A stretch of 64,000 nt of DNA from Squalus acanthias (lineage: Eukaryota): assembly GCA_030390025.1 (NCBI GenBank), contig CM059432.1:69690001-69754000 (forward strand). The letters are read 5' to 3'. This document shows, one piece after another, positions 6,536-61,109 of the stretch (position 1 is its first letter; the number at the start of each line of letters is the position of its first letter). Made by a program: the position numbers and the translations under genes. The notes beneath the pieces are model-generated. The model made no database searches and had not been told where the DNA came from. It saw only the letters and a list, made by a program, of their open reading frames with translations.

Positions 6536-7735
6536 TCACTGGAACTGGAGTCTGATGGAGTCCCTTCCGGAACGGGGATCTGCTGCCTGCCTCCTCCCTT
6601 CCTCCTCTTCCACTTCCTCCTCCCGCTGAGGTGGGGCCGGAACCCATGGTGGCAAGGGCTGAGCGTTCATGATGGCCAAGTTGTGGAGCATGCAGCCGAC
6701 CACAAAATGGGACACCCGCCCTGGTGTGTACTGGAGGGCTCCTCCCGAGTGGTCAAGGCAGCGGAACCGTTGCTTGAGCACCACGATGGTCTGCTCGATG
6801 AAGTTCCTCATGGCAGTATGGCTCTCATTATATGAGTGCTGTCCGTGAGTGGTGGGGTTGCAAAGGGGAGTCATCAGCCAGCTGCAGAGCAAATAGCCCT
6901 TCTTTCCGAGCAGCCACCCTCTGGTTTGACATGGTGGCTAGAAGATTGCTGGCAAACCGGCCTGGCACATCATGACTGCTGACAGGATCACCACACGGAC
7001 TGCAGCGGTTCAAGAAAGCGGTTCACCACCACCTTCTCAAGGGCAACTAGGGATGAGCAATAAATGCTGGCCTTGCCAGCGACGCCCAGATCCCACAAGC
7101 GAATAAAAAAAATACACCAGGCATTCACCATCGTGGCATGGTTGCACACCAACTGCACATTAAGCGAGTGGTAGTTTTGCATTTATGGAACATCTCAGGA
7201 TTGATATGCGGCGCCTGCAAAGCCACGTGTGTGCAGTCGATGGCGCCCTGCACCAGGGGGAAGCCTGCTATCCTGGCAAAGCCATATGCATACTCCTCCT
7301 GCTTCTCTCTGTTCAGAGAGAAAATAATGAAGCCCCTTCTCCTGGAGTACAGAGCCTCTGTGACCTCCCGGATGCATCGATGGATGGCGAACTGGGAGAT
7401 GTTTGCTATGTCTCCTGATCCAGACTGGAAGCATCCATTGGCGAAAAAATTGAGGGCCACTGGGAGAGCCATCATCGCCCTGCTCTGAGGCTGCAGGTCT
7501 GGTTGCAGGAAGTGGCAGACTTCTGTGATCACCTCTTTGATGAAGCAGAGCCTCCTAAGACACTGCTCCAGGTAGGAGAAGTGCTCCTTGAAGACCCTAG
7601 GTGGGTAAGGCCTCCTGCTGAGAGCCCTCCAGCCCTCCTCCTCCTCTGTGAGGATCTTGTCCTCTTCTTCACTAGCTCTGCTCCATCTCACTGCCATACT
7701 TGCACACAAGGAGGACTGCAAGTAGAGCCCCCATG
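6536..7735 (-). pseudogene. Harbinger (HARBI1-like DDE) transposase of H1, disrupted
   Basis: Motifs RRPYPPRVF, ALNFFA, GAIDCTHV, HSLNVQLVC, IEQTIVVLKQRFRCLD and CMLHNLA. It has frameshifts and a LINE-tail insertion. Confidence 0.9.
6985..7113 (+). mobile_element. Short 3' end of LINE family B inserted in the H1 transposase
   Basis: gcaataaatgctggccttgccagcgacgcccagatccc...aataaaaaaaa matches the 3' end of the element at 21808-21920 (reverse complement). Confidence 0.8.
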
Positions 7736-19618: not shown

Positions 19619-21807
19619 GGGCGAAAAATTCGGCTCCATAGCACCGTTGCCGTTTTGTGCCGAAAATGGCATCCGTGCCGTGCGCACACACTTATGCGTG
19701 CCATGCCGGACGCCATCTTGGTGAAGGCGGTAGGGTGGGTGTTAGGAGTGTGCACCGTAAGTATGCAGAGTACGCAGATCCTGACATCACGCAGGTTTGA
19801 CGCCAGCACTGCCATTTTCGTTGTCAACGCTAACGCCCTGTGTTAACATGCGTTCTGCATCAGTAGGGACCCCACCACCAGCAATATTTAAAGGGATTAG
19901 CAACCACACTAAAGTTAGTTGCAGATTGATTTCTACTGGCTCTGTGTAAGTTTGTGGAAGGGTTTAGAGCTTTCTAGAGTTGTTTAAAGTTGGTGAGGTG
20001 ACAGGGAGTGATGCTGCACGTGGAGAAGGCCTTGCTTCCGACTTCAAGGGTTCTGGTCAGACACTTGCTCCCAGTCATAGGTGCTCTAGTTGTCATCCCC
20101 CTTGGCCTGCAGCATGACAGGGAGATGGAGTAGAGGCAGCAAAGAGGATAAGCTGCTCGCAGAGGAGGAGGAAGAGGGGGAGAAGGGTTCTCAGCAGGAG
20201 GCCTTACCCACCTAAGGTCTTCTGAGAGCAATTCTCTTACCTCAGCCTGAGCCAGGAGCTGTGTGTGAGGCATCTGCGCTTTATGAAGGAGGTGCTCACA
20301 GAACTCTGCCACCCCTTGCAACCAGACCTGCAGCCTCACACCAGGGCAAGGACAGCGCTGCCCGTGACTGTGTAGGTGACCGTGGCCCTGAATTTCTTTG
20401 AGTCGGGATCCTTCCATGGCTTGAGCAGGTGACATCTGTAACATCTCAGTTCACTGTCCACCAGTGCATAAGAAAGGTGACAGAAGCTCTTTATGCCAGG
20501 AGAGGGGACTTTATTGTCTTCTCCCTGACGAGAGAGAAGCAGACGGAGCGTGTTCGTGGCTTTGCCAGGACAGTGGACTTCCCCATGGTGCAGGGTGCCA
20601 TCGACTGCATGCACGTGGCTTTGCGGGTACAGCATCTAAATGCTGAGATGTACCGCCACCACAAAGGTTTCCACTCGCTGAATGTGCAGTTCATGTGCGA
20701 CCATGCTCAAAATATGATGATGGTGAACGCCCGATATCCTGGTAGCAGTCATGCTGCTTTTATTCTGCGCCAGTCTGCTGTTCCCTCAGTCTTTGAGCCA
20801 CCACGTCAAACCAGAGGCTGGCTGCTGGCCGGCAAGGACTCGACCACCTGGCTCATGACTCCACTCCGCAATCCAACTACACGAGGCCAGTATGCGTATA
20901 ATGAGAGCCATGCTGCCACACGAAACATCATAGAGCAGACCATTGAGGTGCTGAAATAATGGTTCTGCTGCCCCCTGCAGTACTCACCAGAGCAAGTTTC
21001 AAGATCATTGTGGTCTGTTGCATGCTCCACAACATCACCATCATGAGGGCACAGCCCTTGCCACCAGGCATACGGCGACCAGCTGAGGAGGAGAAAGTGG
21101 AAGAGGAGGAGGAGGAAGCAGAAGAGGAGGAAAAGGAAGGAAGGAGGTGACCCAGACAGCCTCTTTCTGCCTAGGCTGTCCATGACTAATCCGGCTGTGG
21201 TTTCAGTGAACGCAACCCCAATTCCACATTCACCAATAGTGCCACACCTTACCATCTCTCTGATACGGACCATCACAGTGTCCTCATGGCCACAATGCTG
21301 AAATAAAAGCCACCACAAAAGAAATATTCCAATCCAACTTTGTACATGAATCCATCCAATATATAAAAAAGTCAACTAATCACCCTTGTGCATTCCCTCA
21401 GTGCCTATCTTCCGTATGCCTTTGCCTGTACTAGTGCTCCTACAAAGTGCTACCCCAGTGGCTGCACCATGGCTGGTGGAAGGCTGCTCACTTTCAATGG
21501 GGGAGACTGAAGATAGGCCTTGCAGGACGACCTCAAGCAGCTGTGGGCCTGGAAGGCCCGACTGTAGACTGCACCACCTCAGCCTGTGCATCAGCAGTCT
21601 GAGTTGGCTGGCAGACAGGCAACATCAAGGGCACTGGCGGAGTGGCAGTAGTGGGAGCACGAATGATGCCATCCTGAGAGAGGACAGCAGGTTCTTGCTC
21701 AATGGGGCCACCGCCACTCCCCCGGGATGGTGCCTCAACAATCCTAGTAATCTGTTGGAGGACAGATTGCTGGACTGCTGTAACACCCTGCAAGCCCCTT
21801 TCCACAC
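19619..21807. mobile_element. PIF/Harbinger transposon H3, right half missing
   Basis: Left TIR gggcgaaaaattc, transposase on +, and a Myb-gene 3' end on - (21376-21807) cut off by LINE B. No continuation was found after 27972. Confidence 0.85.
20114..21200 (+). pseudogene. Harbinger transposase of H3
   Basis: GAIDCMHV, HSLNVQFMCD, RYPGSSH, RNIIEQTI and CCMLHNI motifs, with stops and frameshifts. Confidence 0.88.
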
Positions 21808-24551
21808 TTTTGTTCACGGGATGTGGACATCGCTGGCAAGACCAGCATTTATTGCCCAACCCAAATTGCCATTGAGAAGGTGGTGGTGAGCTGTCTTCTA
21901 GACCCGCTGCAGTCCATCTGGTGAAGGTAGTCCCACAGTACTGATAGGAAGGGTGTTCCAGGATTTTGACCCAGTGACTGAAGGAACAGCGATATATTTC
22001 TAAGTCAGGATGGTGTGTGACTTGGAAGGGAACTTGGAGGTGGTGGTGTTCCCATGCGCCTGCTGCCCTTCTCCTTCTAGGTGGTAGAGGTCGTGGGTTT
22101 GGGCGGTGCTGTCGAAGAAGCCTTGGCGAGTACATCTTGTAGATGGTACTCACTGCAGCCACACTGCGTCGGTGGTGGAGCCAGAGAATGTTTAAGGCGG
22201 TGGATGGGGTGCAAGTCAAGCGGGCTGCTTTGTTCTGGATGGTGTCGAGCTTCTTGAGTGTTGTTGGAGCTGCACTCATCCAGGCAAGTGGAAAGTATTC
22301 CATCACACTCTTGCATTGTGCCTTGTAGATGGTGGAAAGGCTTTGGGGAGTCAGGAGGTGTGACACTCGTCGCAGAATACCCAGCCTCTGACCTGCTCTT
22401 GTAGCCACAGTATTTATGTGGCTGGTCCAGTTAAGTTTCTGATCAATGGTGACCCCGAGGATGTTGATGGTGGGGGATTCGGCGATGGTAATGCCATTGA
22501 ATGTCATGGGGCGGTGGTTAGACTCTTGCTTGTTGGACATAGTCATTGCCTGGCACTTGTGTGGCACGAATGTTACTTGCCACTTATCAGCCCAAGCCTG
22601 AATGTCGTCCAGGTCCTGCTGCATGCGGGCATGGACAGCTTCATTATCTGAGGAGTTGCAAATGGAACTGAATACTGTGCAATCATCAGCGAACATCTCC
22701 ATTTCTGACCTTATGATGGAGGGAAGGTCATTGATGAAGCAGCTGAAGATGGTTGGGCCTAGGACACTGCCTGAGAAACTCCTGCAGTGATGTCCTGGGG
22801 CTGAGATGATTGGCCTCCAACAACCACCACCTTCTTCCTTTGTGCTAGGTATGACACCAGCCAGTGGTGAGTTTTCCCCCTGATTCCCATTGACTTCAGT
22901 TTTACTAGGGCTCCTTGATGCCACACTCGGTCAAATGCTGCCTTAATGTCAAGTGCATTCACTGTCACCTCACCTCTGGAATTCAGCTCTTTTGTCTATG
23001 TTTGGACCAAGGCTGTAATGAGGTCTGGAGCCGAGTGGGTCCTGGCGGAACCCAAACTGAGCATCGGTGAGCAGGTTATTGGTGAGTAAGTTCCGCTTGA
23101 TAGCACTTTTGATGACACCTTCCATCACTTTGCTGATGATTGAGAGTAGACTGATGGGGCAGTAATTGGCCGGATTGGATTTGTCCTGCTTTTTGTGGAC
23201 AGGACATATCTGGGCAATTTTCCATGTTCTCGGGTAGATGCCAGTGTTGTAGCTGTACTGGAACACCTTAGCTATAGGTGTGGTTAGTTCTGGAGCACAA
23301 ATCTTCAGCACTACAGCCGAGATGTTACCAGGGCCCGTAGCCTTTCCTGTATCCAGTGTGTTCAGCTGTTTCTTGATATCACATGGAGTGAATCGAATTG
23401 GCTGAAAACTGGTTTCTGTGATGGTGGGAACCTCAGGAGGAGGCCGAAATGGATCATCTACTCAGCACATCTGGCTGAAGATGGTTGTGAATGCTTCAGC
23501 TTTGTCTTTTGTACTCAGGTGCTGGGCTCCGCCTTCATTGAGGATGAGTGTGTTCATGGAGCCTCCTCCTCCCATTAATTGTTTCATTGTTCACCACCAT
23601 TCATGACTGTATGTGGCAGGACTGCAGAGCTTTGATCTGATCCATTGGTTGTGGGATTGCTTGGACCTTTCTATAGCATGCTGTTTCAACTGTTTAGCAT
23701 GTATGTAGTCCTGTGTTGTAGCTTCACCAGGTTGGCACCTCATTTTTAGCTACGGCTGGTGCTGTTCCTGACATGCTCTTCTACACTCCTCATTGAACCA
23801 GGGTTCATCCGCTGGCTTGATGGTTATGGTGGAGTAAGGTATATGCCGGGCCGTGAGGTTACAGATTGTCGTGATATGCTGTTGCTGATTTCCCACAGCG
23901 CCTCATGGATGCCCAGTTTTGAGCTGCTAGATCTGTTCTGAATCTATCCCATTTAGCACGATGTTAGTGCCACACAGCACGCTGGAGGGTGTCCTCAGTG
24001 AGAAGATGGGACTTTGTCTTCAAAAGGACTGTGCTATGGCCATTTCTACCAATACTGTCATGGACAGATGCATCTGCGACAGGTAGATTGATGAGGACGA
24101 GGTCAAGTAGGTCTTTCCCTCGTGTGGGTTCTCTCACCATCTGCCACCGGCCCAGTCTGGCAGCTATGTCCTTCAGGACTCGGCCAGCAGAGGTGCTACC
24201 GAGCTACTCTTGGTGATGGATATTGAAGTCCCCCACCCAGAGTATATTCTGTGCCCTTGCTATTCTCAGTGCTTCTTCCAAGTGGTGTTAAACATGGAGG
24301 AGTACTGATTCATCAGCTGAGGGAGGGCGGCACGTGGTAATCAGCAGGAGGTTTCCTTGCCCATGTTTGACTTGATGCCATGAGACATCATGGGGTCCAG
24401 AGTCAATGTTGAGGACTCCCAAGGCCACTCCTTCCCAACTGTATACCACTGTGCCGCCACCTCTGGTGGGTCTATCCTGCCGGTGGGACAGGACATACCC
24501 AGGGATGGTGATGGAGGAGTCTGGAACATTGGCTGAAAGGTATGATTCTGT

Positions 24552-27458
24552 GAGCTAGAAATTCATGTGGTTTGTGCCACAAGATGGCACTAAAATGCCA
24601 TTGACAGCTGTAACGATAGCTCATGCCGGTTCCAGCACCACACGTCATATTGGTGGTGCCAGTAGTGCTGCCAGTAACCTCGATCGCCAGGGAGCTCACC
24701 ACGATGGAGATTGTGACATCAGTGAGTGTGCAACGCTCACTGGACACCCGATCTTCCAACTTTGTTTTAGCCAAGGTACTTACTGGCTGGAGAAAGCAAT
24801 GATAGCTTCAGGCGGCATGCAGCGACGCTATTCAAAAGGATCCTCACCAATCACTCACACCTGTCAGGGTTTTGAAGTTTGGGTGGCTGTGTGCTAGTTC
24901 CTGCTACTGGAAGAGTTATCTTTAGTCATTTCAAGATTCTTTGGTATCAGGGAGTGTTCTGGCAAATACAAAACTCCCTCATTATTTTTGAAAGGCTTCA
25001 AAGTACAACACTTGCTAAAAATCACTCACTCAATTAATGTGCAGTTGGTGTGCGACCACAGACAGCGAATTCTCACAGTCAATACCCGCTATCCTGGCAG
25101 CAGCCACGATGCCTTCATCCTGCACCAGACTGGTGTGCCAGCACTCTTCCAGCCACCACATCAAGCTCGAGTGTGGCTGCTCGGAGACAAGGGCTATCCA
25201 CTCTCTACCTGGCTCATGACTGCCCTCCGCAACCCCAACACTCATGCCCAGCACTCATATAATGAGAGCTATGCTGCCACCAGGAACATCATCGAGCAGA
25301 CCAGCGGCTTATTGAAGCAATGGTTCCGTTGCCTTGACCGTTCGGGAGGAGCCCTCCAGTACTCGCCAGAGCGGGTGTCCCATTTCGTGGTGGTCTGCTG
25401 CATGCTCCACAACTTGGCCATCATGAGGGCGCAGCCCTTGCCAGCAGGGATTGCGGGGCCACCTCAGGAGGGGGGACGAGGTAGAGGAGGATTAGAATGA
25501 GGAGGAGGAAGAGGACGAGAAGGAGGAGGAACAGGAGGGAGGGAGGAGGCAGCGAGACAATCGGCCATCCCGATGGGCTGTCCGTGACCAGCTCATCAGA
25601 CTCCGATTCACATGAATGAAACCCCAGATCCCCGTTGCTCACCACATCCCCATCATATCATCCCTGTCTCACGCCATATCACAGCATCCTCCTGGGCGCA
25701 AAGGTGAAATGAGAGAGACCACAAAATATTCCAAACACCATTAATAAATTTATCTATAAACATATCACACATATTACATGAAATCTGATATCTAATGACC
25801 CTTGTGCCTGCCATAGTTGAATAGCTGTCATTGTGTGCAAGGTGTGAGATGTGGGTGTGAGTGTTGCTAGGTAGAGATTGTTGGTGGGTGAGTGCTGTGG
25901 GTGTGGTACATTGAGCAGTGTGTGAAACTTGTGGTACAGATGGTGGTATGTAGCATTTGTTCAAACCTTCATTCACCCTGACCAACCGTGTGAGCTCGTT
26001 AAACTTCTTCCTGCACTGGATGTGGGACCTGGGGAGCACAGTGCTGCCCGTGATGTGGTGTGCCACCTCCCTCCACATAGTCCGGCAGACTTGTGGTGAG
26101 TGTCGCCTGCCAGTTGGTACAGGACCGCCCGCCTTCTCTCCACTGCTAAAACCAATGCCTCCAAAGCTTCATCGGAAAACCTCCAGGCTCTCTCTCCGGG
26201 GCGGCAATCTGTCATCAGGATTTGTAAATAAGTGCTCCTTCGCCTTGTCCTTCCTCTTATGGTTGTTGAGGCAGCTGCACACCCAACAATGCTGAGAATG
26301 AGGTGCTGCAGCATCTCTTTAAGTAGTGAAAAAGCCCGTGGCAATCATTACTTGAATTTAGACTACACCCGATATTGGTCCATCTTTTCAGTGTAATGCC
26401 AATGAGCTTGGGTTTTTAGACTAGAATCATGGCTGCAATCATTTTAATGAGGAGTGAGGATGAATTTTGCGTGCAGTCTAGATGATTTTCACCTGGCGCT
26501 ACTTAAACATTTTGGGGTAGAAATTAGGTCGCGCCCCATTTGGGGCGCAAATATCGTCCGGACGCAAATATTAGCGCCTGGCGCTAATTATCGGCACTGA
26601 CGGGAAACTTCACTTTTACCGCCCCGGGAGGTGAGTGGAGCGCTAAAGCAGGCGCTGCACACCTCTCTTAAGGCGCAAAGGCCGAGCACTGAGGCGCTAA
26701 CTCGGAGCGCTGGCGAAGCTCATGTAATGTCAGTCAGCAATGGAACACACACACAATGGCACGGGCCAGTTCTTAAAGGGGATGGTTAATCTTGCTTTCC
26801 ATCCACATCCTGTTCATTGCTGCCTTGAATCTCGGCCTGGAGAGACTTGCACATCAAATGTGCTGGAAAGAACAATGGAGAGCACCAGGCAAAGAGCTCA
26901 GAGTGCAGCTCCCACGGTCTCTGCTAAATCGATACAAGGAATGGCAAATCAAAATGAACCTGCAAAGTGCTGCTCAGTACCCAAAACTCCTTCACACAAC
27001 GTTGAATCTCTCCAGAAGTCTCTCCCTCTCTCTCTCAGAATGCGTAGTTCAAAAATGCCACCAACAATAAAAGACAGGAAGAGGCCCCCTTTAAATAGCG
27101 CCCCCCCCCCCAGCCCCACAGCGATTGATAGCGTTCCAGTCTTCTGGTCGTTGGAAGCGCCAGGCGGTAAGGCAGGGGACGCCACTCAATTTCCGCTACG
27201 GGGCGCCCCAAGGGCGTTGCACCATGGAATGACGTCACAATCTGCGCGCGCAGGTGGTCGCAGCGGTAAGTTTTAGCGCCGCCGCACAATCTCAAGTTAA
27301 GTTCTCGAGCGGCGCAAACATCGCTGCGCCCGGGCGTTAGCGGCTTTGCGCCCCATTAGCGCCCTCTTAAGGCGCTAACGGGTGGCGCAACCAAGTGAAT
27401 TTTTACCCCTTTTAGTCGAAACACTGCCCATTCCTTGGCTATAATGAATTTCTAGCCC
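24552..27458. mobile_element. PIF/Harbinger transposon H4 (internally deleted) inserted into the LINE B endonuclease region
   Basis: TIRs gagctagaaattc / gaatttctagccc, transposase 3' half on + (about 25024-25616, LLGDKGYP) and Myb 5' part on - (about 25810-26220). Confidence 0.88.
26514..27409. mobile_element. GC-rich Harbinger-type MITE (family X) nested in H4
   Basis: TIRs ggggtagaaatt / aatttttacccc and TTT TSD. Closely similar to 43683-44597, and the equivalent site in H5 (about 54945-54965) is empty. Confidence 0.85.
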
Positions 27459-27889
27459 ACATGTAAGTATGACTATGTCAGGTTGTTGGGACAGCTCTCC
27501 CAACTTTGGCACAGGTCCCCAAACGTTAGTGAGAAGACTTTGCTGAGTTGAATGGGCTGCGTGTGTCTTTGCCGTGTCCAAATCCGGTGCTTAGGGCAAT
27601 GCCAGGTTGTCCGTCCGGTTTTATTCTTAATGTTTTTCCTAGCGGTTTGATACAACTGAGTGGCTTGCTAGGCCATTTCAGAGGGCAGTTAAGAGTCAAC
27701 CACATTGCTGTAGGTCTGGAGTCACATATAGGCCAGCCTGGGTAAGGACGGAAGATTTCCTTCCCTAAAGGACATTAGTGAACCAGATGGGTTTTCACGA
27801 CAATCCGGTAGTTTCATGGTCACCATGACTGATACTAGCTTTTTAATCCAGATTTATTTAATTAACTGAATTAAAATTCCCCAGCTGCT

Positions 27890-27972
27890 GTGGAGGGATT
27901 TAAACACACATCTCTGGATCATTCTTCCAGGCCTCTGGATTACTAGTCTAGTAACATAATCACTATGCTACC
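27890..27972 (-). promoter_or_regulatory. tRNA-like head with Pol III A-box and B-box at the 5' end of LINE B
   Basis: The minus strand reads GGTAGCATAGTGATTA (A-box-like), CTAGA-CTAGTAA-TCCAG (anticodon-arm-like) and GTTTAAATCCC (B-box-like, one mismatch). Confidence 0.65.
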
Positions 27973-29145
27973 ATTCAGCAAATTTCAACCAGTTTCACAT
28001 CTTTCAACAAAGATGGCCATCTCAATTCTGTTTCTGCTTCAGGGTATGGCTATACTGCTCATACCATCACTTATGGCGGTGTTGTTAGAATTCGGGTTTG
28101 AAATGGTATTGAAGGGCAATAGCACAGAGACCTTTGCCATGGCTGCCCACCTCCATTTACATGCAGCAAGCCAGGCTCCTGGCCTATTTATCTGGACTGG
28201 CTTTTTTTAGGAAGAGAATTCGGATGAGAATTTATGGGGTAGGATTGTGATAGTAAGTCACACTGTCTCAGTGTGGCCATAAAACTGCCCCAGAACCGGT
28301 GGTTTCAGGAAGAAAAAAAATCCAGCTCCAGCTGTCTTAATCAATCAAAGGACAATTTGGTTACAATTAATCCTTTCTCACACAAACTTGTCTTCAAAAG
28401 TTGTAACTCTCAGTCCTTGGAAAATTTAGCAAGATAGCATGCTATACTGATAACCGAGTCCCTAAGATTCCTTACACAATGCCTTCAGTCACAAGACCAC
28501 TGGTTCATCATTTTTATCCAAGGCCCAAGACCATTTGATCATAAGTAGAAAAATCCTTCTTTGTCTGGTCGACACTACTTGGACTGAACTGCTATTTTGT
28601 CTGAATTCTGAAATCACATAATGGAGGAAATTAATCCCTTTGAATAGCCTACAGCAATTGAGAGAGGTATGTGTGGGGGTAGCTTGTTAGTCTTCACCAC
28701 CTCAGGTAATGTGGTGGAGTGGATTGCCCACCTCTTACAAAACCCACCTGATTTTCATTACATTGAAATCAATGAATCCACCCCATGTTGTTTTAACTTG
28801 TATATTCATGCATATTTATCTTCAAAAAGGTAAAACATGTTACAGTAAAATTTAAAATTAGTAGGTGATCTTCCATGCTGAAAATCATGAAGGTTGCAGA
28901 TTAAAATCGGAGGAACCTGCATGAAGAGAGCAGGACCTCAGCAGGTAAGCACCACAGGTGATTTTAATGCCCACCAGCCCGGTTTCTGCTTATTAATGGT
29001 CTCTATGGAAATTCCTTTTTACCTGGAGAAGGGGGAATAGAGGAATGCTAGCAAATTTGGGTTACATCATGTGCTGCTCACCGTTAATCTCCCAGGCGCG
29101 AATATGGGTGACAGCTAGAGTCACAACTTACACCCTGGAACATGG

Positions 29146-29985
29146 TCCTGGTTCTTGAAGGCCAATCATCACAGGCTCAGGACATCACTGCATGAGTTCC
29201 TCCTGGTTCTTGAAGGCCAATCATCACAGGCTCAGGACATCACTGCATGAGTTCCTCTGGCCAGTGTCCAATGCCTGACCATCTTCAAGTGGTAAATCTA
29301 CATCCTTCCTTCTGCCATAAAGTCAGGAATGGGGATGTTCACTAACAATTCCACAGTGTCCACCACCATCAAGATCCATAGGGTCATTATTGACCAGGAG
29401 CTTAACTGGACCAGCCATATCAACACCGTGACTAGGGCAGAGCAAAGGTTGGTACTCTGAGACAAGTGGCTCACTCCCTGACCCCTCACAGTCTCTGCAC
29501 CATCTACAGATCTCAAGTCAGGCGTGTGATGGAATGCTCACACGCAACTGGATGGGTGCAGTTGCAACAACACTCAAAAATCTCGACATCATTCAAAGCA
29601 AAGAAGTTCACTTGTGCGCGCCTTTGCCACTGGACTCAATAACCACTCTCTCCATCACTGGCACACTGTGGTTGTCATATGTACTTTCTACAGGATGCAC
29701 TGCAGCAAATCACCAACTTTACTTAAACAGGACTGTGACCTCTACCCCTGAGAAGGTCAAGAGCAGCAATATCATGCGAACACCATCACCTCCAAGTTCC
29801 CCTCAAAGTCATACACTGTCCTGACTTGGGCATAAATTGCTGTTCCTTCATCATTGCTCATTCAAAATTCTGGAATTCCCTACCTAACAGCACCATGGAA
29901 GTACCATCACCATTGCATCAGTTCAAGGAGATGGCCCACCTTCTCAGCAAGTTGGGATGGGTAATGAATTCAGCTTTCAGTGTTG
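29146..29985 (+). mobile_element. Decayed LINE B-family RT/3' fragment beginning with a perfect 55-bp tandem duplication
   Basis: Similar to the reverse complement of 21850-22830. The unit 29146-29200 is repeated exactly at 29201-29255. Confidence 0.75.
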
Positions 29986-43670: not shown

Positions 43671-46149
43671 CATAGAGACATAGGGGGAGAAATTCAGTAT
43701 CGCCCCATTTGGGGCGTAATTATCGGCCGGGCGCAAAGATTAGTGCCTGGTGATAATTATCGCCACCGACTGCAAACTTGACTTTTATCGCCCCTGGAGG
43801 TGATTGGAGCGCTAAATCAGGCGCTTCACACCTCTCTTAAGGCGCAAAGGCCGAGGAGCGAGGCGCTACCTCAGAGCGCGGCGCTACCTCAGAGCGCTGG
43901 CGAAGCTCATGTGATGTCAATCAGCAATGAAACACACACACAATGGCGCCGGCCAGTTCCTAAAGGGGAGGGTTGATCTTGCTTTCCATCCACATCCTGC
44001 TCATTGCAGCCTTGAATCTCGGCCTGGAGAGACCTGCACATCAAATCTGCTGGAAAGAACAATGGAGAGTACCAGGGAAAGAGCTCAGAATGCAGCCCCC
44101 ATAGTCTCTTCTAAATCGATAAAAGGAAGGGCAAATCAAAATGAACCTGCAAAGTGCTGCTCAGTACCCAAAACTCCTTCACACACCGTTGAATCTCTCC
44201 AGAAGTCTCTCTCTCTCTCTCTCTCTCAGAATGCGTGGTTCAAAAATGTCACCAACAAAAAAAGGCAGGAAGCGGTCGCCTTTAAATAGCGCTCCCCCAG
44301 TCCCTTCCTGACTGCAAAACGCTCCCCTCAAACTGTCGTTGCTAGCGGCAGGCAGTAAGGCTGGGGGCGCCACTCAATATCTGCTCCGGGGCGATACCGG
44401 GGCGTTGCGAACTTGACTGACGTCATGATCTGCCGGCGCAGGAGATCGTGGCGGTAGTGTTTAGTGCCACCGCAAAATGTCTAGTTAATTTCGCGAGCGG
44501 CGCAAACATCGCCGCGCCCGGGCGCTAGATGCTTTGCGCCCCATTAGCGCCCTCTTAAGGCGCTAACGGGAGGCGCAACCAACTGAATTTTTCCCCCATA
44601 GAGTTATACAGCACAGAAAGAGGCCCTTCGGCCCATCGTGTCTGCGCCGGCCATCAAGCCCTGTCTATTCTAATCCCATTTTCCAGCACTTGGTCTGTAG
44701 CCTTGTATGCTATGGCATTTCAAGTGCTCATCTAAATGCTTCTTGAATGTTGTGAGGGTTCCTGCCTCTACCACCCTTTCAGGCAGTGAGTTCCAGATTC
44801 CAACCACCCTCTGGGTGAAAAAGTCTTTCCTCAAATCCCCTCTAAACCTCCTGCCCCTTACCTTGAAATTATGCCCCCTGGTTATTGACCCCTCTACTAA
44901 GGGGAAAAGTTCCTTTCCATCTACCCTATCTATGCCCCCCATAATTTTGTACACCTCAATCAGGTCCCCCCTCAGCCTTCTCTTCTCTAAAGAAAACAAC
45001 CCCAGCCTGTCCAGTCCCTCCTCATAGTTGAAGCACTCCAGCCCAGGTAACATCCTGGTGAATCTCCTCTGCACCCACTCCAATGCAATCACATCCTTCC
45101 TATAGTGTGGTGACCAGAATTGCACACAGTATTCCAGCTGTGGCCTAACTAGCATTTTGTACAGCTCCATCATAACCTCTCTGCTCTTATATTCTATGCC
45201 TCGGCTAATGAAGGCAAGTATCCCATATGCCTTCTTAACCACCTTATCTACCTGTCCTGCTGCCTTCAGGGATCTATGTATATGCACACCAAGGTCCCTC
45301 TGATCCTCTGTCCTTCCTAGGGTCCTACCATTCATTGTGTATTCCCTTGCTTTGTTAGTCCTCCCAAAATGCATCACCTCACACTTTCCAGGGTTAAATT
45401 CCATTTGCCACTGTTCTGCCCATCTAACCAACCCATCTATATCGTCCTGTAGCCTGAGGCTTCCCTCCTCGCTATTTACCACTCCACCAATTTTTGTGTC
45501 ATCTGCAAACTTACTGATCATACCTCCTACATTCATATCTAAATCATTAATGTACACTACAAACTGCAAAGGACCCAGCACCGATCCCTGCGGTACACCA
45601 CTGGACACAGGCTTCCAGTCACAAAAGCAACCTTCGACCATCACCCTCTGCCTCCTGCCACTAAGCCAATTTTGGATCCAATGTGCCAAATTGCCCTAGA
45701 TCCCATGGGCTCTTACCTTCTTAACCAGTCTCCCATGCAGGACTTTGTCAAAAGCCTTACTGAAGTCCATGTAGACTACATCAACTGCACTACCCTCATC
45801 CACACACCTAGTCACCCCCTTGAAAAATTCAATCAAATTGGTTAGACATGATCTCCCCCTGACATGCTGACTATCCTTGATTAATCCTTGCCTCTCCAAG
45901 TGGAGACTAATTCTGTCCCTCAGAATTTTTTCCAATAATTTCCCTACCACTGATGTTAGGCTCACTGGCCTGCAATTCCCTGGTTTATCCCTACTACCTT
46001 TCTTGAATAATGGTACTACATTAGCTGTTCTCCAGTCCTCTGGCACCTCCCCTGTGGCCAGAGAGGTTCTGAAAATTTGTGTCAGAGCCCCTGCAATCTC
46101 CTCCCTTGCCTCACACAGCAGCCTGGGATACATCTCGTCTGGGCCTGGG
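43671..46149 (-). mobile_element. 5'-truncated CR1 LINE (RT), relatively young
   Basis: ORFs 45696-46149 and 44670-45689 contain YMDFSKAFDKV, GVPQGSVLGP and KFADDTK, separated by one stop. The catagag tail is split by a MITE. Confidence 0.95.
43683..44597. mobile_element. GC-rich Harbinger-type MITE (family X) in a CR1 tail
   Basis: TIRs gggggagaaattcagt / actgaatttttccccc and ATA TSD. Confidence 0.88.
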
Positions 46150-47575
46150 GGAGCCTCTGAAATCGAGGCTGTGGAGCTCACCAAGAATTGTGGGTAATGA
46201 AGAGGTCTGAGAATTAAAGGGGCCATGCAGATTGAAGCAATACAAATTAAAATGAAGTGAAATAATGCAGTTTTCGGCCCTTTCTGACTTTTAAAAAACA
46301 TTTAACATTAAAAACAATTCCAAATGTGAATATCCAGCTCTTAAAGCTGAATTATCTTCCTAACCTCAACAAATGGTAAAACTGTCTCAGCACTAACACA
46401 AATGGCTCAGCAAGCTAGGGAAGGGGCACCCAGGGTCTTGCACGCAGAGCTCCAGATTTGTGCAGGGGTTCAACACTGAAAGACAGGCCCTCTACCCACA
46501 AGGGCCAGGAGGTCCTCCAGAAAGAAGGGTGTGGAGTACATCACTGAGGCCATCACTGCCAGCAATGTCGCCCCCACCATCTGGCTCCAGTGCCCAAAGA
46601 AGCTTCATGACCTCAGACCAGTGGTTAAGGTCAGTAAATGCATCTTCAAAAGCCATCTCCTACCAACTGCACCACTAGCATCACACACTGCTCTATGCAC
46701 AACCCCCAATCACTCAACTACCAACAATCTGCACCAATCACGAGGCACATCTCCCATTCCTAGCCTCACCTCACCCCCTTGGAGGAGACAGTGCAGGCCA
46801 TTCTTGGCAAGGGCATGGCTGAGCCTCTGGCCAGCGGCGGAGCTGAAAAGATACAAGATGCTGGTATCCTCATACATTATCCTCCTTCTGGCATGCACCT
46901 CATGCTTTCCCACCCTCCCATCACCACAACTCCACCCTTGTCCCTTCCTCATTTCACACACCCAAGAAATGCAGCCTGCCTAGCCAGTGGTTGACCAAGA
47001 AGAGGGAGAGGAGAGTGAAGAAGAACAAGAAGAAGAAGAAGATTGCTTTGACACTCCCAGCTAAGACATTTGCAGTGTCCCCCACTGAAAGTCAGCAACC
47101 TTCCACCAGCCATACTGCAGCCACTGGGGTAGCACTACGTGACATCATTAACATAGGTAAAGGCACAAACGAGACAGTCACTAAGAGAATGCAAATGAGT
47201 GATGAGTTGATTTCTTGATGCCACATTGGATGGATAGATGTATATAGGTGGATTGAAAAGTTTGCTTGTGGTGGCTTTTATTTCAGCATCATGGCCAAGA
47301 GGATGTTGTGATGGTCAGTAACAGAGGGAAGGTAAGGTGTGGGACTAATGTTGAAAGGGGAATTGAGGTTGTGGTCACTGGGACCGCAGGCGGATGATTC
47401 GATCCCGGATATCCTGGCCAGAAAGGGGCTGTCTGGGATGCATCCTTCCGTCTGATTCTTCCTTTTCTGATTCCTGCTCTTCGGCTTCCTCCTCTTCTGC
47501 TTCTTCCTCTCTGGCTTCCTCCTCTTCTGTGTCTTCCCCTTCCCTCTACAAGTGATGCTGTAAATGTGAAATGAC

Positions 47576-49049: not shown

Positions 49050-49905
49050 CATTTAAAAAATTAATTCTCGGGAAGTGAGCGTCACAGGCAGTTATTGCTC
49101 ATCCCTCGTTGCCCTGAGTTGCTGATGGTGGGTCTTCTTCTTGACCTGCTGCATTCTATATGGAGAAGGTACTCCTACAATGCTGTTAGGCAAGGAGTTC
49201 TAGGATTTTGATCCAGTGACGATGAGGGAACAATGATATACGCAGGATGGAATTTGGCTTGGAGGGACAATGTTCACATGCACCTATTGCTTCTAGGTAG
49301 TACAGGTTGCAGGTTTGGGAATTGGTGCCAAAAAAGCCTTCGTAAGTTGCTCCAATGCATCCTGTAGATAGTACACCCTGCAGCCAAGTACTCCAGTGAT
49401 GTAGGGGGTAGATGTTTAGGCTAGTGAATGAGGTGCTGATCAAACGGACTGCTTAGTCCTGCATAGTGTTGAGCTTTTTGAGTGTTGTTGCAGCTGCATC
49501 CATTCAGGCAAGTGTAGAACATTCCATCACACTCCCTGTATGTGGTGGGGAGGCTTGGGGAAGTCAGGAGGTGAGTCACTCTCTACAGAATACCCAGCTT
49601 CTGACCTGGTCTAGTGGCCATGGTATTTACATGGCTGGCCAAGTTGCTTCTCTGGCCAATGGTGACTCACGACGATGTTAGTGGTGATGGTAATGCATTG
49701 AATGTTAAGGGGAGGTGGTTAGGCTCTCTCTTGCTAGAGATGGTCATTGCCTGGTACTTGTATTGCGCGAATGTTACCTGCCACTTATGAGCCCAAGCCT
49801 TGATGTTGTCCAGGTATAGACTGTTTTATTATCTGAGGAATTGTGACTAGAGCTGAACTTTGTGCAACCATCAGCAAACAGCTCCACTTCTGACCTTATG
49901 ATGGA
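49050..49905 (-). mobile_element. Decayed LINE B-family 3' fragment
   Basis: Colinear similarity to 21810-22720. Confidence 0.75.
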
Positions 49906-56212: not shown

Positions 56213-59200
56213 CATAGAGTCATAGGGCTGGATTTTGAAACTCAGGTCGGGTTGGTGTCGTGAATCCCACATTTTGGCTTGTAAACCCGCCTCCATCGAG
56301 ATGTGGCCAACCCACTGTATTTTCCCTTGATTGACCTTGTTGAGCCCGCCCAGTGGGCTCAGCAGGCCAATTAAGGGCCACCCAGCAACAGGTGACATCA
56401 CAGATTGACATTTCATCTGTCAAGAGCTTTTGACAGATGAAATATCAGCGTTTGACAGCTCTGTGAAGCTGTCAAACACTGACAATATGATTTCTAACTT
56501 GAGTCCTTCCTCTCAGGCTGAGTTAGAAATCATTCCACCACAGAAAACAGAAGGCTGCAGTTTTTGACAGGACCACGGCTTTTCTGCTTTCTGTGCCGGT
56601 GAGATTTCTGACTCCCGAGAACTGAAGGGCTGACACCTGCAGGAGGAAGTTAAGGTAAGTAAAACTTTTTCCCACACTTAGCACTTACCTTACAAACTTA
56701 CCTCTGCACACATGCACCCATCACTCACCTGCCCATCGGACATATCGACCCCTCCAACCCCTGCAGACCCACGGTCCGCCCCGATTACTTGGCGTGGTTG
56801 CCACCTGTCGGGAAGCCCACATTTCACCTTTTAAAATAGGGATTATTCAAAAAACTGCCTGTTAACTACCTGTTAACAGGCAGTTAATTGTCACTCATCC
56901 CTTCCCACCTCGGGGAATCGGGTCTCAGCACAGGTCGGGTACCCGCCGCCAGCGAAACTGGCATGGAGGCAGGTTGGAGGCGGGATGGGGTCGGGACCCC
57001 CGAATCTGCAACTTTAACCCCCCACACGCCTCCAAACCTGACTCCACAGGTCATTGAAAATCCAGCCCATAGAGTCATAGAGTTATACAGCACAGAAAGA
57101 GGCCCTTCGGCCCATCATGTCTGCACTGGCCATCAAGCCCTATCTATTCTAATCCCATTTTCCAGCACTTGGGCCGTAGCCTTGTATGCTATGGCGTTTC
57201 AAGTGCTCATCTAAATGCTTCTTGAATGTTGTGAGGGTTCCTGCCTCTACCACCCTTTCAGGCAGTGAGTTCCAGATTCCAACCACTCTCTGGGTGAAAA
57301 AGTTTTTCCTCAAATCCCCTCTAAACCTCCTGCCCCTTACTTTGAAACTATGCCCCCTGGTTATTGACCCCTCTACTAAGGGGAAAAGTTCCTTTCTATC
57401 TACCCTATCTATGCCCCTCATAATTTTGTACACCTCAATCAGGTCCCCCCTCAGCCTTCTCTGCTCTAAGGAAAAGAACCCCAGCCTGTCCAGTCCCTCT
57501 TCATAGCTGAAGCGCTGCAGCCCAGGTAACATCCTGGTGAATCTCCTCTGCACCCTCTCTAATGCAATCACATCCTTCCTATAGTGTGGCGACCAGAACT
57601 GCACACAGTATTCCAGCTGTGGCCTAACTAGCATTTTGTACAGCTCCATCATAACCTCCCTGCTCTTATATTCTATGCCTCAGCTAATGAAGGCAAGTAT
57701 CCCATATGCCTTCTTAACCACCTTATCTACCTGTCCTGCTGCCTTCAGGGATCTATGTACATGCACACCAAGGTCCCTCTGATCCTCTGTCCTTCCTAGG
57801 GTCCTACCATTCATTGTGTATTCTCTTGCCTTGTTAGTCCTCCCAAAATGCATCACCTCACACTTTTCAGGGTTAAATTCCATTTGCCACTGTTCTGCCC
57901 ATCTAACCAACCCTTCTATATCGTCCTGTAGCCTGAGGCTTCCCTCCTCGCTATTTACCACTCCACCAATTTTCGTGTCATCTGCGAACTTATTGATCAT
58001 ACCTCCTACATTCATATCTAAATCATTAATGTACACTACAAACAGCAAAGAACCCAGCACCAATCCCTGCGGTACACCACTGGACACAGGCTTCCAGTCA
58101 CAAAAACAACCTTCGACCATCACCCTCTGCCTCCTGCCACCAAGCCAATTTTGGATCCAATTTGCCAAATTGCCCTGGATCCCATGAGCTCTTACCTTCT
58201 TGACCAGTCTCCCATGCGGGACTTTGTCAAAAGCCTTACTGAAGTCCATGTAGACTACATCAACTGCACTACCCTCATCCACACACCTAGTCACCCCCTT
58301 GAAAAGTTCAATCAAATTGGTTAGACATGATCTCCCCCTGACATGCTGACTATCCTTGATTAATCCTTGCCTCTCCAAGTGGAGACTAATTCTGTCCCTC
58401 AGAATTTTTTCCAATAATTTCCCTACCACTGATGTTAGGCTCACTGGCCTGTAATTCCCTGGTTTATCCCTACTACCCTTCTTGAATAATGGTACTACGT
58501 TAGCTGTCCTCCAGTCCTCTGGCACCTCCCCTGTGGCCAGAGCGGTTCTGAGATTTTGTGTCAGAGCCCCTGCAATCTCCTCCCTTGCCTCACACAGCAG
58601 CCTGGGATACATCTCGTCTGGGCCTGGGGATTTATCCACTTTTAAGCCCGCTAAAACCGCTAGTACCTCCTCCCTCTCAATGCTAATTTGTTCAAGTATA
58701 TCACAATCCCCCTGCCTGATTTCTATGCCTGCATCGTCCTTCTCCATAGTGAACACAAATGCAAAATATTCATTTAAAGCCTCCCCTACATCTTCTGGCT
58801 CTACACACAGATTGCCACTTTGGTCCTTAATGGGCCCTACTATTTCCCTGGTTATCCTCTTGCCCTTAATATACTTATAAAATACCTTGAGAGTTTCCTT
58901 TATTTTGCCCGCCAGTGTTTTTTCATGCCCCCTCTTCGCTCTCCTAATTTATTTTTTAATTCCCTCCCTGCACTTTCTATACTCCTCTAGGGCTTCCACT
59001 GTTTTTAGTCCTTTGTATCTGCCAAAAGCCTCCCTTTTTTTCCTAATCCATTCTTGTATATTTCTTGACATCCAGGGTTCCCTGGACTTGTTGGTCCCAC
59101 CCTTGACCTTTATGGGAACATGTTGGCGCTGTACTCTCTCTATATCCTTTTTGAATGACTCTGAATGCTCTGATGTGGATTTTCCTACAAGTAGCTGATC

Positions 59201-60804
59201 CCAGTCCACTTTGGCCAGATCGTGCCTTATCATATTAAAATCGGCCTTCCCCCAATTTAGAACTTTTATTTCCGGTCCATCTTTGTCCTTTTCCATGACT
59301 ACCTTAAATCTCACCGAATTATGGTCACTGTCACCAAAATGCTCTCCTACTGACACTTCTACCACTTGCCCGGCTACATTCCCTAGAATTAGGTCCAGTA
59401 CTGCCCCCTCTCTTGTAGGACTTTCTACATGCTGGCTCAAAAAGCTCTCCTGGATGCACTTTAAGAATTCCGCACCCTCTAAACCTTTCACACTCTGACT
59501 ATCCCAGTTAATATTGGGGAAGTTGAAATCCCCTACTATTATTACCCTATCATTTCTACACTTCTCTGAGATTTGCCGACATATCTGTTCCTCTATCTCA
59601 CCCTAACTGTTTGGGGGCCTATAGTACACTCCCAGCAAAGTGCTTGCCCCCTTTTTGTTTTTATGTTCTACCCATATGGCCTCATTAGAGGAAGCTGCTA
59701 AGATATCATCCCTCCTTACTGCAGCAATTGACTCCTTGATTAATATTGCGACACCCCCTCCTCTTTTACACCCCCCTCTGTCTCGTCTGAAGATTCTATA
59801 CCCCGGAATATTGAGCTGCCAGACCTGCCCCTCCCTCAACCATGTCTCTGTGATAGCAACAATATCATACTCCCATGTGTTCATCAACACCTTCAATTCA
59901 TCTACCTTACTCGTAAGACTCCTTGCATTAAAATAAATGCCCTCCAGCCTTGCCATACTCCCTTGTGCCATTCCATATTTGCTCTGCCTTCCAGACTGAC
60001 TTGTTTTTTCCTCTATATTTGGCTGTGCATCACCCCCTACTATAACTCCACTCCGTATCCCATCCCCCTGCCAAGTTAGTTTAAACCCCCTCCAACAGCA
60101 CTTGCAAACCTCCCCGCAAGGATGTTGGTCCCGTTCCGGTTCAGGTGCAACCCGTCCGACTTGTACAGGTCCCACCTTCCCCAGAAACAGACCCAGTGAT
60201 CCAGGAAACTAAAGCCCTCCCTCCTGCACCAACTCTTTAGCCACGCATTCATCTGCCCTATCCTCCTATTCCTACACTCACTAGCATGTGGCACCGGGAG
60301 TAATCCAGAGATTACAACCTTTGAGGTCCTGCTTTTTAATCTGCTACCTAGCTCCCTAAATTCTTGTTGCAGGACCTCATCCCTCTTTCTACCCATGTCG
60401 TTGGTACCAATGTGAACCACGACCTCTGACTGTTCGCCCTCCCCCTTCAGAATGCCCTGCAGCCGTTCAGTGACATCCTTGACCCTGGCACCAGGGAGGC
60501 AACATACCATCCTGGAGTCACGTCTGCAGCTGCAGAAACGCCTGTCTGCACCCCTCACTATTGTGTCTCCTACCACTATTGCCCTTCCACTCTTACTCCT
60601 CCCGCCTTGTGCAGCTGAGCCACCCACAGTGCCGTGAACTTGGCTCTGGCTGCACTCCCCAGAGGAACTGTCACTTTCACCATTTTCCAACACAAAAAAA
60701 CGGTTGTTGAGTGAGATGCACTCTGGGGCTTTCCTGACTAACTGCCTGCCCCCCTTCTTCTGATTGGTGGTCACCCATTCGCTCTCTGACTGCACTTTCT
60801 TAAG
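56213..60804 (-). mobile_element. Near full-length CR1 LINE: ORF1 SGNH esterase plus ORF2 EN-RT with a few disablements
   Basis: ORF1 60076-60795 (IVVGDTIVRG, CLPGARV, HIGTND), EN (YFNARSL, AITETWL, GVYYRPP), RT 57680-58756 and C-terminus 57149-57652. Stops at about 59603 and 57680, frameshift near 58949. Confidence 0.96.
56225..57068. mobile_element. Harbinger-type MITE (family Y) in a CR1 tail
   Basis: TIRs gggctggatttt / aaaatccagccc and ATA TSD inside (CATAGAGT)n. Confidence 0.88.
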
Positions 60805-61109
60805 CTGTCAATCATTATCACATGTTGATGAGGTGCTTTTGAAGAGATTCCAACAGGGATTTGAATTTAATTCCTCCAGCAAGGGTTACCTGGGGCTCGG
60901 GAAACTTGCCAGTGAAACGCAGGCGAGATTGAGCAGCACTCATAGAGTGTTTAAAGTTCTAATTGCCCAATATGAATAAAGGCTCAGTGCTTACAGCTGC
61001 TTTCTCAGTTTCCTGTGGCAAACGTTTTGCAGGGAGTTCTTGTGATCCTAGGCGTGTTTCCGAAGTTTGGAGGCTTTCAAACAGACAACAGCAGGATGGG
61101 GAGGGTCCC

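Follow-up and report, generated by a model that had tools for sequence, protein, structure and literature searches.

A tRNA-like head shared by coding Zenon retrotransposons of sharks and rays, and its candidate role as a polymerase III promoter

A long interspersed nuclear element (LINE) whose 5' end resembles a transfer RNA (tRNA) is present in the genome of Squalus acanthias, the spiny dogfish. It raises the question whether this tRNA-like head is a part of the LINE or of another repeat that came to stand in front of it and, if it belongs to the LINE, which polymerase makes the coding RNA of the element. The analysed stretch, here called the window, comprises 64,000 nt of contig CM059432.1 (69,690,001-69,754,000), and the coordinates of the element are given within it. 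The LINE copy runs on the minus strand from 27976 to 21808 and consists of the following parts.

27890-27976, minus strand: tRNA-like head; homology to the published consensus SquAca_Zenon-1 begins at 27976, with only 2 nt between this point and the start of that consensus
27960-27970, minus strand: A box, 10 of 11 positions matching here (one mismatch), full match in seven of seven published consensuses
27935-27951, minus strand: anticodon-like arm, four of five pairs, with a 7-nt loop containing AGT
27914-27930, minus strand: extra hairpin at the variable-arm position, 5-bp stem, z -1.1
27897-27905, minus strand: B box, one mismatch here, full match in six of seven consensuses, 65 nt after the A box start
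27650-27889, minus strand: conserved body of the 5' region, retained in short forms; not a Deu domain and no Rfam family
27540-27649, minus strand: spacer ahead of the endonuclease, with ATA at 27624 where six of seven consensuses have ATG
27465-27539, minus strand: endonuclease N-terminus; losses of 1 nt and 15 nt are inferred for this copy
24552-27464, no strand assigned: inserted Harbinger element H4 (24552-27458) with a 6-nt footprint (27459-27464), containing a nested 0.9-kb element (26514-27409)
21814-24551, minus strand: remainder of the decayed single endonuclease-reverse transcriptase (RT) frame, with RVT_1 at about 23190-22445 (E 9e-12)
21808-21899, minus strand: 3' tail, common to the short forms, with the stop codon at 21816-21814 and then a worn A-rich end

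An earlier sequence-only reading of this DNA had described an A box, an anticodon-like arm with AGT and a B box at the 5' end. All three are present there in tRNA order. The A and B box consensus patterns are established knowledge. The three-part pattern occurs once on both strands of the window, at this site, with 0.3 expected per shuffled window; the chance of meeting it within any one element's first 15 nt is about 4e-5, for a pattern that was defined after the site had been seen. The pair of A box and B box alone is common, with 8 occurrences in the window against 7.3 expected. Because of the extra hairpin, the box spacing exceeds that of tRNAs.

Whether the head belongs to the LINE was decided by comparison with published relatives. 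Zenon elements of sharks and rays are described by Stuart et al. (2026, PMC13343379) as lacking open reading frame 1 (ORF1), ending in poly-A and grouping with crustacean elements, and ten Zenon consensuses are found in the supplement to that paper. The first 400 nt of each consensus were compared by eye, and the consensus features reported here come from this comparison. All seven shark and ray consensuses (2886-3314 nt) share their opening part, made up of head, body and spacer, with the present copy; they are SquAca_Zenon-1, -2 and -3 from spiny dogfish, those from great white (CarCar), whale shark (RhiTyp) and catshark (ScyCan), and HypSab_Zenon-1 from stingray. The head was matched by none of the three hagfish and coelacanth consensuses, and four head words taken from the window match only the seven elasmobranch rows of the supplement file. 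Over 338 gap-free 5' positions, this copy shows 27 differences to SquAca_Zenon-1 (about 92% identity). The A box is intact in all seven elasmobranch consensuses and the B box in six, across five orders, and the consensuses begin 5-10 nt ahead of the A box, approximately at the start position of a tRNA gene. This copy departs from the consensus in its box mismatches, both of them decay, and in a T4 run at 27876-27873. In great white, whale shark and catshark the stem sequence of the extra hairpin is unlike that of the dogfish consensuses and this copy, yet it is paired in both; in the stingray consensus the hairpin is lost.

Judged from these consensus sequences, head, body, spacer, endonuclease-RT frame and A tail are shown to form one family-wide unit. 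Independently, the whale-shark gene model P0038 leads from the head body on into the endonuclease, with a short-cut through the spacer that may be a predicted intron. Among the 15 contig joints listed out of 9855, none bridges body, spacer and endonuclease, so that the contigs alone do not prove the link between head and endonuclease. The idea that a SINE (short interspersed nuclear element) landed by chance before a 5'-truncated LINE, at this locus only, could draw on the lack of a second head in the window, the missing target-site duplication and the mismatched flanks, but it conflicts with the head-spacer-endonuclease order shared by seven of seven consensuses, made from tens to thousands of long copies per family (59 to 2313 where legible in the supplement), and with the finding that neither tail nor A run stands between head and endonuclease. 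Since all seven consensuses carry the same head, chance insertion is refuted unless these are assembly chimeras, and it is hardly credible. The same source lists a few copies with a largely intact frame, 3 of 612 in stingray and 1 of 1419 in whale shark.

No ORF1 could be accommodated in the 5' region, where 440 nt precede the endonuclease and the longest ATG frame has 59 codons, in agreement with the sequence-only reading. The same reading had treated the missing ORF1 as a surprise for this LINE; Zenon in general lacks ORF1 (described as universal in PMC13343379), and its absence is therefore not surprising. The full-length elasmobranch consensuses share the head and have no ORF1, which refutes the possibility, named in that reading, that complete copies possess another 5' end bearing an ORF1. 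The nearest full-length proteins are single-frame elements of 935-1008 aa with 36-40% identity, and two of their clusters hold Penaeus records, while short protein pieces belonging to gene models of horn shark and whale shark reach 63-76% identity. In an RT tree of 35 rows, a tree that holds no labelled Zenon RT, the element fell in a 16-row group with single-frame Penaeus-type elements (support 95/96) and apart from the CR1 copies of the window, to which its RT is 26-27% identical. Membership of canonical CR1 was rejected on the missing ORF1 and this placement in another clade. The two CR1 copies used as controls are a near full-length one at 57150-61000 (minus strand), with an upstream frame that resembles an esterase ORF1 by eye, and a partial one at 44597-46150 (minus strand), 96.7% identical to the first. 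Scans of metagenomes gave no match to the junction pattern, and of 45 candidates for the Penaeus-type protein none was confirmed. Four further shark gene models with Zenon-derived stretches (P0021, P0034, P0042 and P0044; FERM-domain, GPRC6A-like and two unnamed) are probably annotation artefacts.

The copy itself is a dead, decayed, full-length elasmobranch Zenon LINE that was later struck by a Harbinger element. The insertion, H4, interrupts the endonuclease, with the PDIVIL stretch on one side and the TESYL stretch on the other. Its inverted ends are complementary at 14 of 15 positions, and a profile scan identified its transposase as DDE_Tnp_4 (E 1.8e-29), next to a Myb/SANT-like piece. 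With the footprint at 27459-27464 assigned to the insertion, the empty site skips 2913 nt, and precisely this joint was found in contigs from four of four public runs (four studies, three organism labels), so the site free of H4 is the common form. The earlier proposal that removal of H4 rejoins the endonuclease frame and leaves an element of about 3.25 kb thus stands, with the insertion refined to 2913 nt. About 440 nt separate the 5' end from the first endonuclease strand, and the single frame of about 940 codons, comparable to the 935-1008 aa of its relatives, carries about five frameshifts and at least nine stops along its whole length. It stops a few bases ahead of the A-rich end, which is worn to 6 nt here; poly-A tails of other copies were seen as loose ends at 21813/21818 (861, 671 and 676 records; runs X6 and X13). 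Depth in the bins of head and endonuclease is 0.2-1.4 million, figures that denote high repetition and not copy numbers and give no ranking of head against body, and beyond the 5' end, past 27976, it drops to the single-copy level of 8-25.

At its 3' end the LINE directly abuts a part of another Harbinger element.

19857-21808, no strand assigned: part of Harbinger H3, abutting the 3' end of the LINE; its remainder was not found beyond the head

No target-site duplication was detected around the element, where the sequence-only reading had advised looking for one, and the best 6-nt match lies far from the ends. Both the abutment of H3 and the missing duplication would be accounted for if DNA was deleted when the element inserted or if two Zenon copies recombined. 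The abutment and the mismatched flanks leave the family-level result untouched.

The 5' region and the tail of Zenon also occur without the middle of the element. In contigs of four of four runs, position 27650 of the head is followed directly by position 21899 or 21891 of the tail, each joint being seen in 1-15 contigs per run. The product is a SINE-like unit of about 415 nt, to which the A tail is added. Whereas the whole element, with 3.25 kb and an endonuclease-RT frame, is not a SINE, this form would qualify as short and non-coding. In ENA, protein P0037 matches the body up to 27655 and then shares 8 of 12 residues, by eye, with the tail frame from about 21875, which makes a second breakpoint pair. 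Both pairs use LINE sequence only and thus fit repeated internal deletion. Three further proteins (P0041, P0042 and P0044) stop matching at 27679 and were not counted as a third breakpoint, being possible splice artefacts, and P0043 was set aside as a chance match.

We infer that the LINE gave rise to the short forms, either through internal deletion or through template jumping. The opposite direction, in which a short SINE-like form came first and Zenon captured its 5' part by template switching, would make the short forms relatives of the LINE and not its deletion products. For such a capture it can be said that tRNA heads are hallmarks of SINEs and exchange of modules is common (PMC5499810, PMC4824008), and that the 240-nt body is unlike any 5' region of hagfish or coelacanth Zenon. 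The presence of at least two breakpoint pairs, each wholly inside LINE sequence, nevertheless fits repeated deletion, as shown for Persaeus from moth Zenon (PMC6740152); the capture-first order is somewhat unlikely. On this question of direction only the two accounts differ.

As regards function, the head of full-length shark and ray Zenon may well serve as an internal polymerase III promoter for the coding RNA of the element. We put forward, more tentatively, a wider reading of these sequences in which shark and ray Zenon would be an autonomous coding retrotransposon, effectively a SINE equipped with its own reverse transcriptase, transcribed by polymerase III from the tRNA-derived head, translated from an uncapped RNA lacking an in-frame AUG, and yielding SINEs by a single internal deletion. 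On the first of these readings, the head would have been acquired by a Zenon ancestor, either ahead of its spread through sharks and rays or in the course of it. TFIIIC would bind the A and B boxes, and polymerase III would read through the body. The protein would start at a non-AUG codon or through coupling to a short upstream frame, the element RNA would undergo target-primed reverse transcription by its own predicted protein by use of the A tail, and internal deletion or template jumping would spawn the SINE-like short forms.

Consistent with such transcription, T4 runs are absent from the first 400 nt of all seven elasmobranch consensuses and present in three of three other Zenons. The sense strand of this copy has 0.9 T4+ runs per kb, whereas the two CR1 copies of the window have 4.2 and 5.2. 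Polymerase III transcripts have been reported to retrotranspose without ORF1 in human cells (PMC2666806).

A number of observations weigh against a tRNA-derived head and its use by polymerase III. ARAGORN found no tRNA genes on this decayed copy and Rfam returned no tRNA match at E 10 (a single chance match had E 1.3), so the tRNA origin rests on the boxes and the arm and not on a profile match. The head folds no better than shuffled sequences (z -1.6 and -0.6), the anticodon-like arm does not fold alone in this copy, and no acceptor-stem partner is visible in the head. The T4+ depletion is not significant in this copy (3 seen, 5.4 expected by base shuffle, P 0.21); of these three runs only one is comparable with a consensus, the comparison covering the first 400 nt of each. 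Pooled with two sister fragments, for which a head is not established, this copy gives 4 runs against 9.3 expected (Poisson P about 0.05, calculated by hand). In this copy no in-frame AUG precedes the endonuclease. Polymerase III RNA is uncapped, and translating such an RNA is difficult when no AUG lies in frame. The sequencing data used are all contigs, which cannot show transcript start, strand or polymerase, and in the RNA runs just 0.07-0.16 of the words were present. Zenon lacks ORF1 in every phylum, headless elements included, so the head is not what permits its loss. Finally, LINEs are treated as polymerase II elements (Kojima 2018, PMC5786205).

That last point, together with the difficulty of translating a 3.3-kb RNA that has neither a cap nor an in-frame AUG and the T-run test that was not significant in this copy, also favours an alternative which accepts the family architecture. 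According to it, polymerase II makes the coding RNA, either from the head region or by reading through from host genes, and the boxes have been retained because they drive only the short forms or a second, non-coding RNA pool that borrows the protein in trans; 30-39% of whale-shark LINEs of these kinds are reported to be intronic (bioRxiv 443036). It has to face the fact that the boxes are intact in the long-form consensus itself in five orders, that the 5' end is located where a polymerase III start is expected, and that no T4 run occurs in the visible 5' regions. We regard it as somewhat doubtful, though a serious contender.

The tRNA-like fold could also be a processing signal that is cut from a longer host transcript to set the 5' end, in the manner of the self-cleaving ribozymes of R2 and RTE LINEs. 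The 5' ends are precise and shared, the extra hairpin shows paired changes from one species to another, which suggests that RNA structure is under constraint, and six LINE clades are known to have 5' ends cut by ribozymes (PMC5786205). The best-kept parts of the head are, however, the two promoter boxes, and the acceptor stem is not visible. RNase P would need that stem. Processing is rated as improbable, and use of the head as a promoter by polymerase III is the reading preferred here.

The start of translation bears on this preferred reading. In six of seven consensuses an ATG follows an A-rich run at the position that matches ATA 27624. In the stingray consensus, the sole ATG-bearing one readable to the endonuclease, this ATG begins a short frame whose phase differs from that of the endonuclease, and no AUG is visible there in the endonuclease frame. 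The Penaeus-type relatives begin with Met just ahead of the endonuclease. In the window the short frame counted from the position of this conserved ATG (27624-27526, minus strand) overlaps the start of the endonuclease in a different phase. A 6-nt length difference to the stingray consensus preserves this short frame, and translational coupling or frameshifting is possible.

BovB elements with SINE pieces at their ends are known. More closely related is moth Zenon, a single-frame LINE of 3.3 kb that repeatedly yields the internally deleted Persaeus (Wang et al. 2019, PMC6740152); shark Zenon resembles it in giving short forms of 5' and 3' parts. Persaeus is, however, described as having no tRNA homology and no polymerase III promoter, whereas the 5' part of shark Zenon is tRNA-like. 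Because this part is shared, the deletion products of shark Zenon look like ordinary SINEs. Bov-tA and SINE2-1_ACar, which are bipartite SINEs on RTE and Vingi LINEs, likewise combine a tRNA head with 5' and 3' LINE parts, but there the head was added after deletion and the LINE is headless, while in shark Zenon the coding LINE bears the head; 5' LINE parts in SINEs are reported for RTE and Vingi only (Kojima 2018, PMC5786205). SacSINE1 and other Deu-SINEs of cartilaginous fish are tRNA-headed and, with 463 nt, similar in size to the short form (Luchetti et al. 2017, PMC5499810). They differ in that SacSINE1 combines a Deu domain with an L2 tail, while the shark Zenon head is without Deu motifs and the tail is that of Zenon. 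Both a Deu domain and a SacSINE1 label were rejected for the head body, the former after the two conserved Deu motifs shown in PMC7245038 (Fig. S4) gave no matches at up to 3 mismatches, the latter on these motifs together with the L2 tail of its description. The sole Deu resemblance is a 10-nt likeness at the start of the Deu domain. From the elasmobranch Zenon elements of PMC13343379 no structural difference emerged: the 5' 400 nt, a length of 3.1-3.3 kb (six of seven consensuses), the lack of ORF1, the A tail and the kinship with crustacean elements are shared, and this copy is a member.

Four other fragments of the window had been taken in the sequence-only reading as a sign that the family is abundant. 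The fragments exist, but they are 3' pieces without a head, three of them only about 70% alike, and lend weak support for the abundance of this exact family. One sister fragment (49088-49905, minus strand; 71% to the main element) has a six-T run right after the tail in place of an A run; this run would be a polymerase III stop signal, and the fragment has no other T4 run. Another Zenon-like fragment contains a perfect 57-nt direct duplication (29146-29257). Zenon and Harbinger nest within each other in both directions in this window, as a 107-nt Zenon tail with a poly-A end (6988-7094, plus strand) breaks another Harbinger copy between 6975 and 7116. The 0.9-kb element nested in H4 (26514-27409) has its own inverted ends and an 84% copy at 43683-44597. 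With a very high depth in the runs of organism A and near absence from those of organism B, it looks lineage-restricted.

The sequence-only reading had also suggested an autonomous SINE-LINE hybrid. The head proved to be family-wide, in seven of seven consensuses and in P0038, and not confined to this locus, and internally deleted head-tail forms exist, but the family is not new. Its proposed RT phylogeny separated the element from the CR1 copies of the window and grouped it with Penaeus-type elements, in a tree without a labelled Zenon. Zenon and its loss of ORF1 are already published, and the tRNA-like head, although contained in the deposited sequences, is not commented on in the main text of the paper. 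As far as that main text is available (PMC13343379), it does not mention tRNA, promoter or polymerase, and SINE appears only in a reference title; the available text of the whale shark preprint (bioRxiv 443036) does not mention tRNA. A literature search, in part with strict terms and outside Repbase and Dfam, found no description of a tRNA head on Zenon or another coding LINE, a result that does not establish its absence from print.

The textbook division assigns polymerase II to coding LINEs and polymerase III to non-coding SINEs, and a headed LINE family would, if the proposal is true, break this division. It would also provide a one-step route to new SINEs by deletion of the middle, as against the fusion of head and tail that is usually assumed, and an example from nature of a polymerase III RNA that is translated into a long protein. 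If polymerase II is used instead, repeat annotation is still corrected, in that a common SINE-like repeat of sharks and a LINE are one family.

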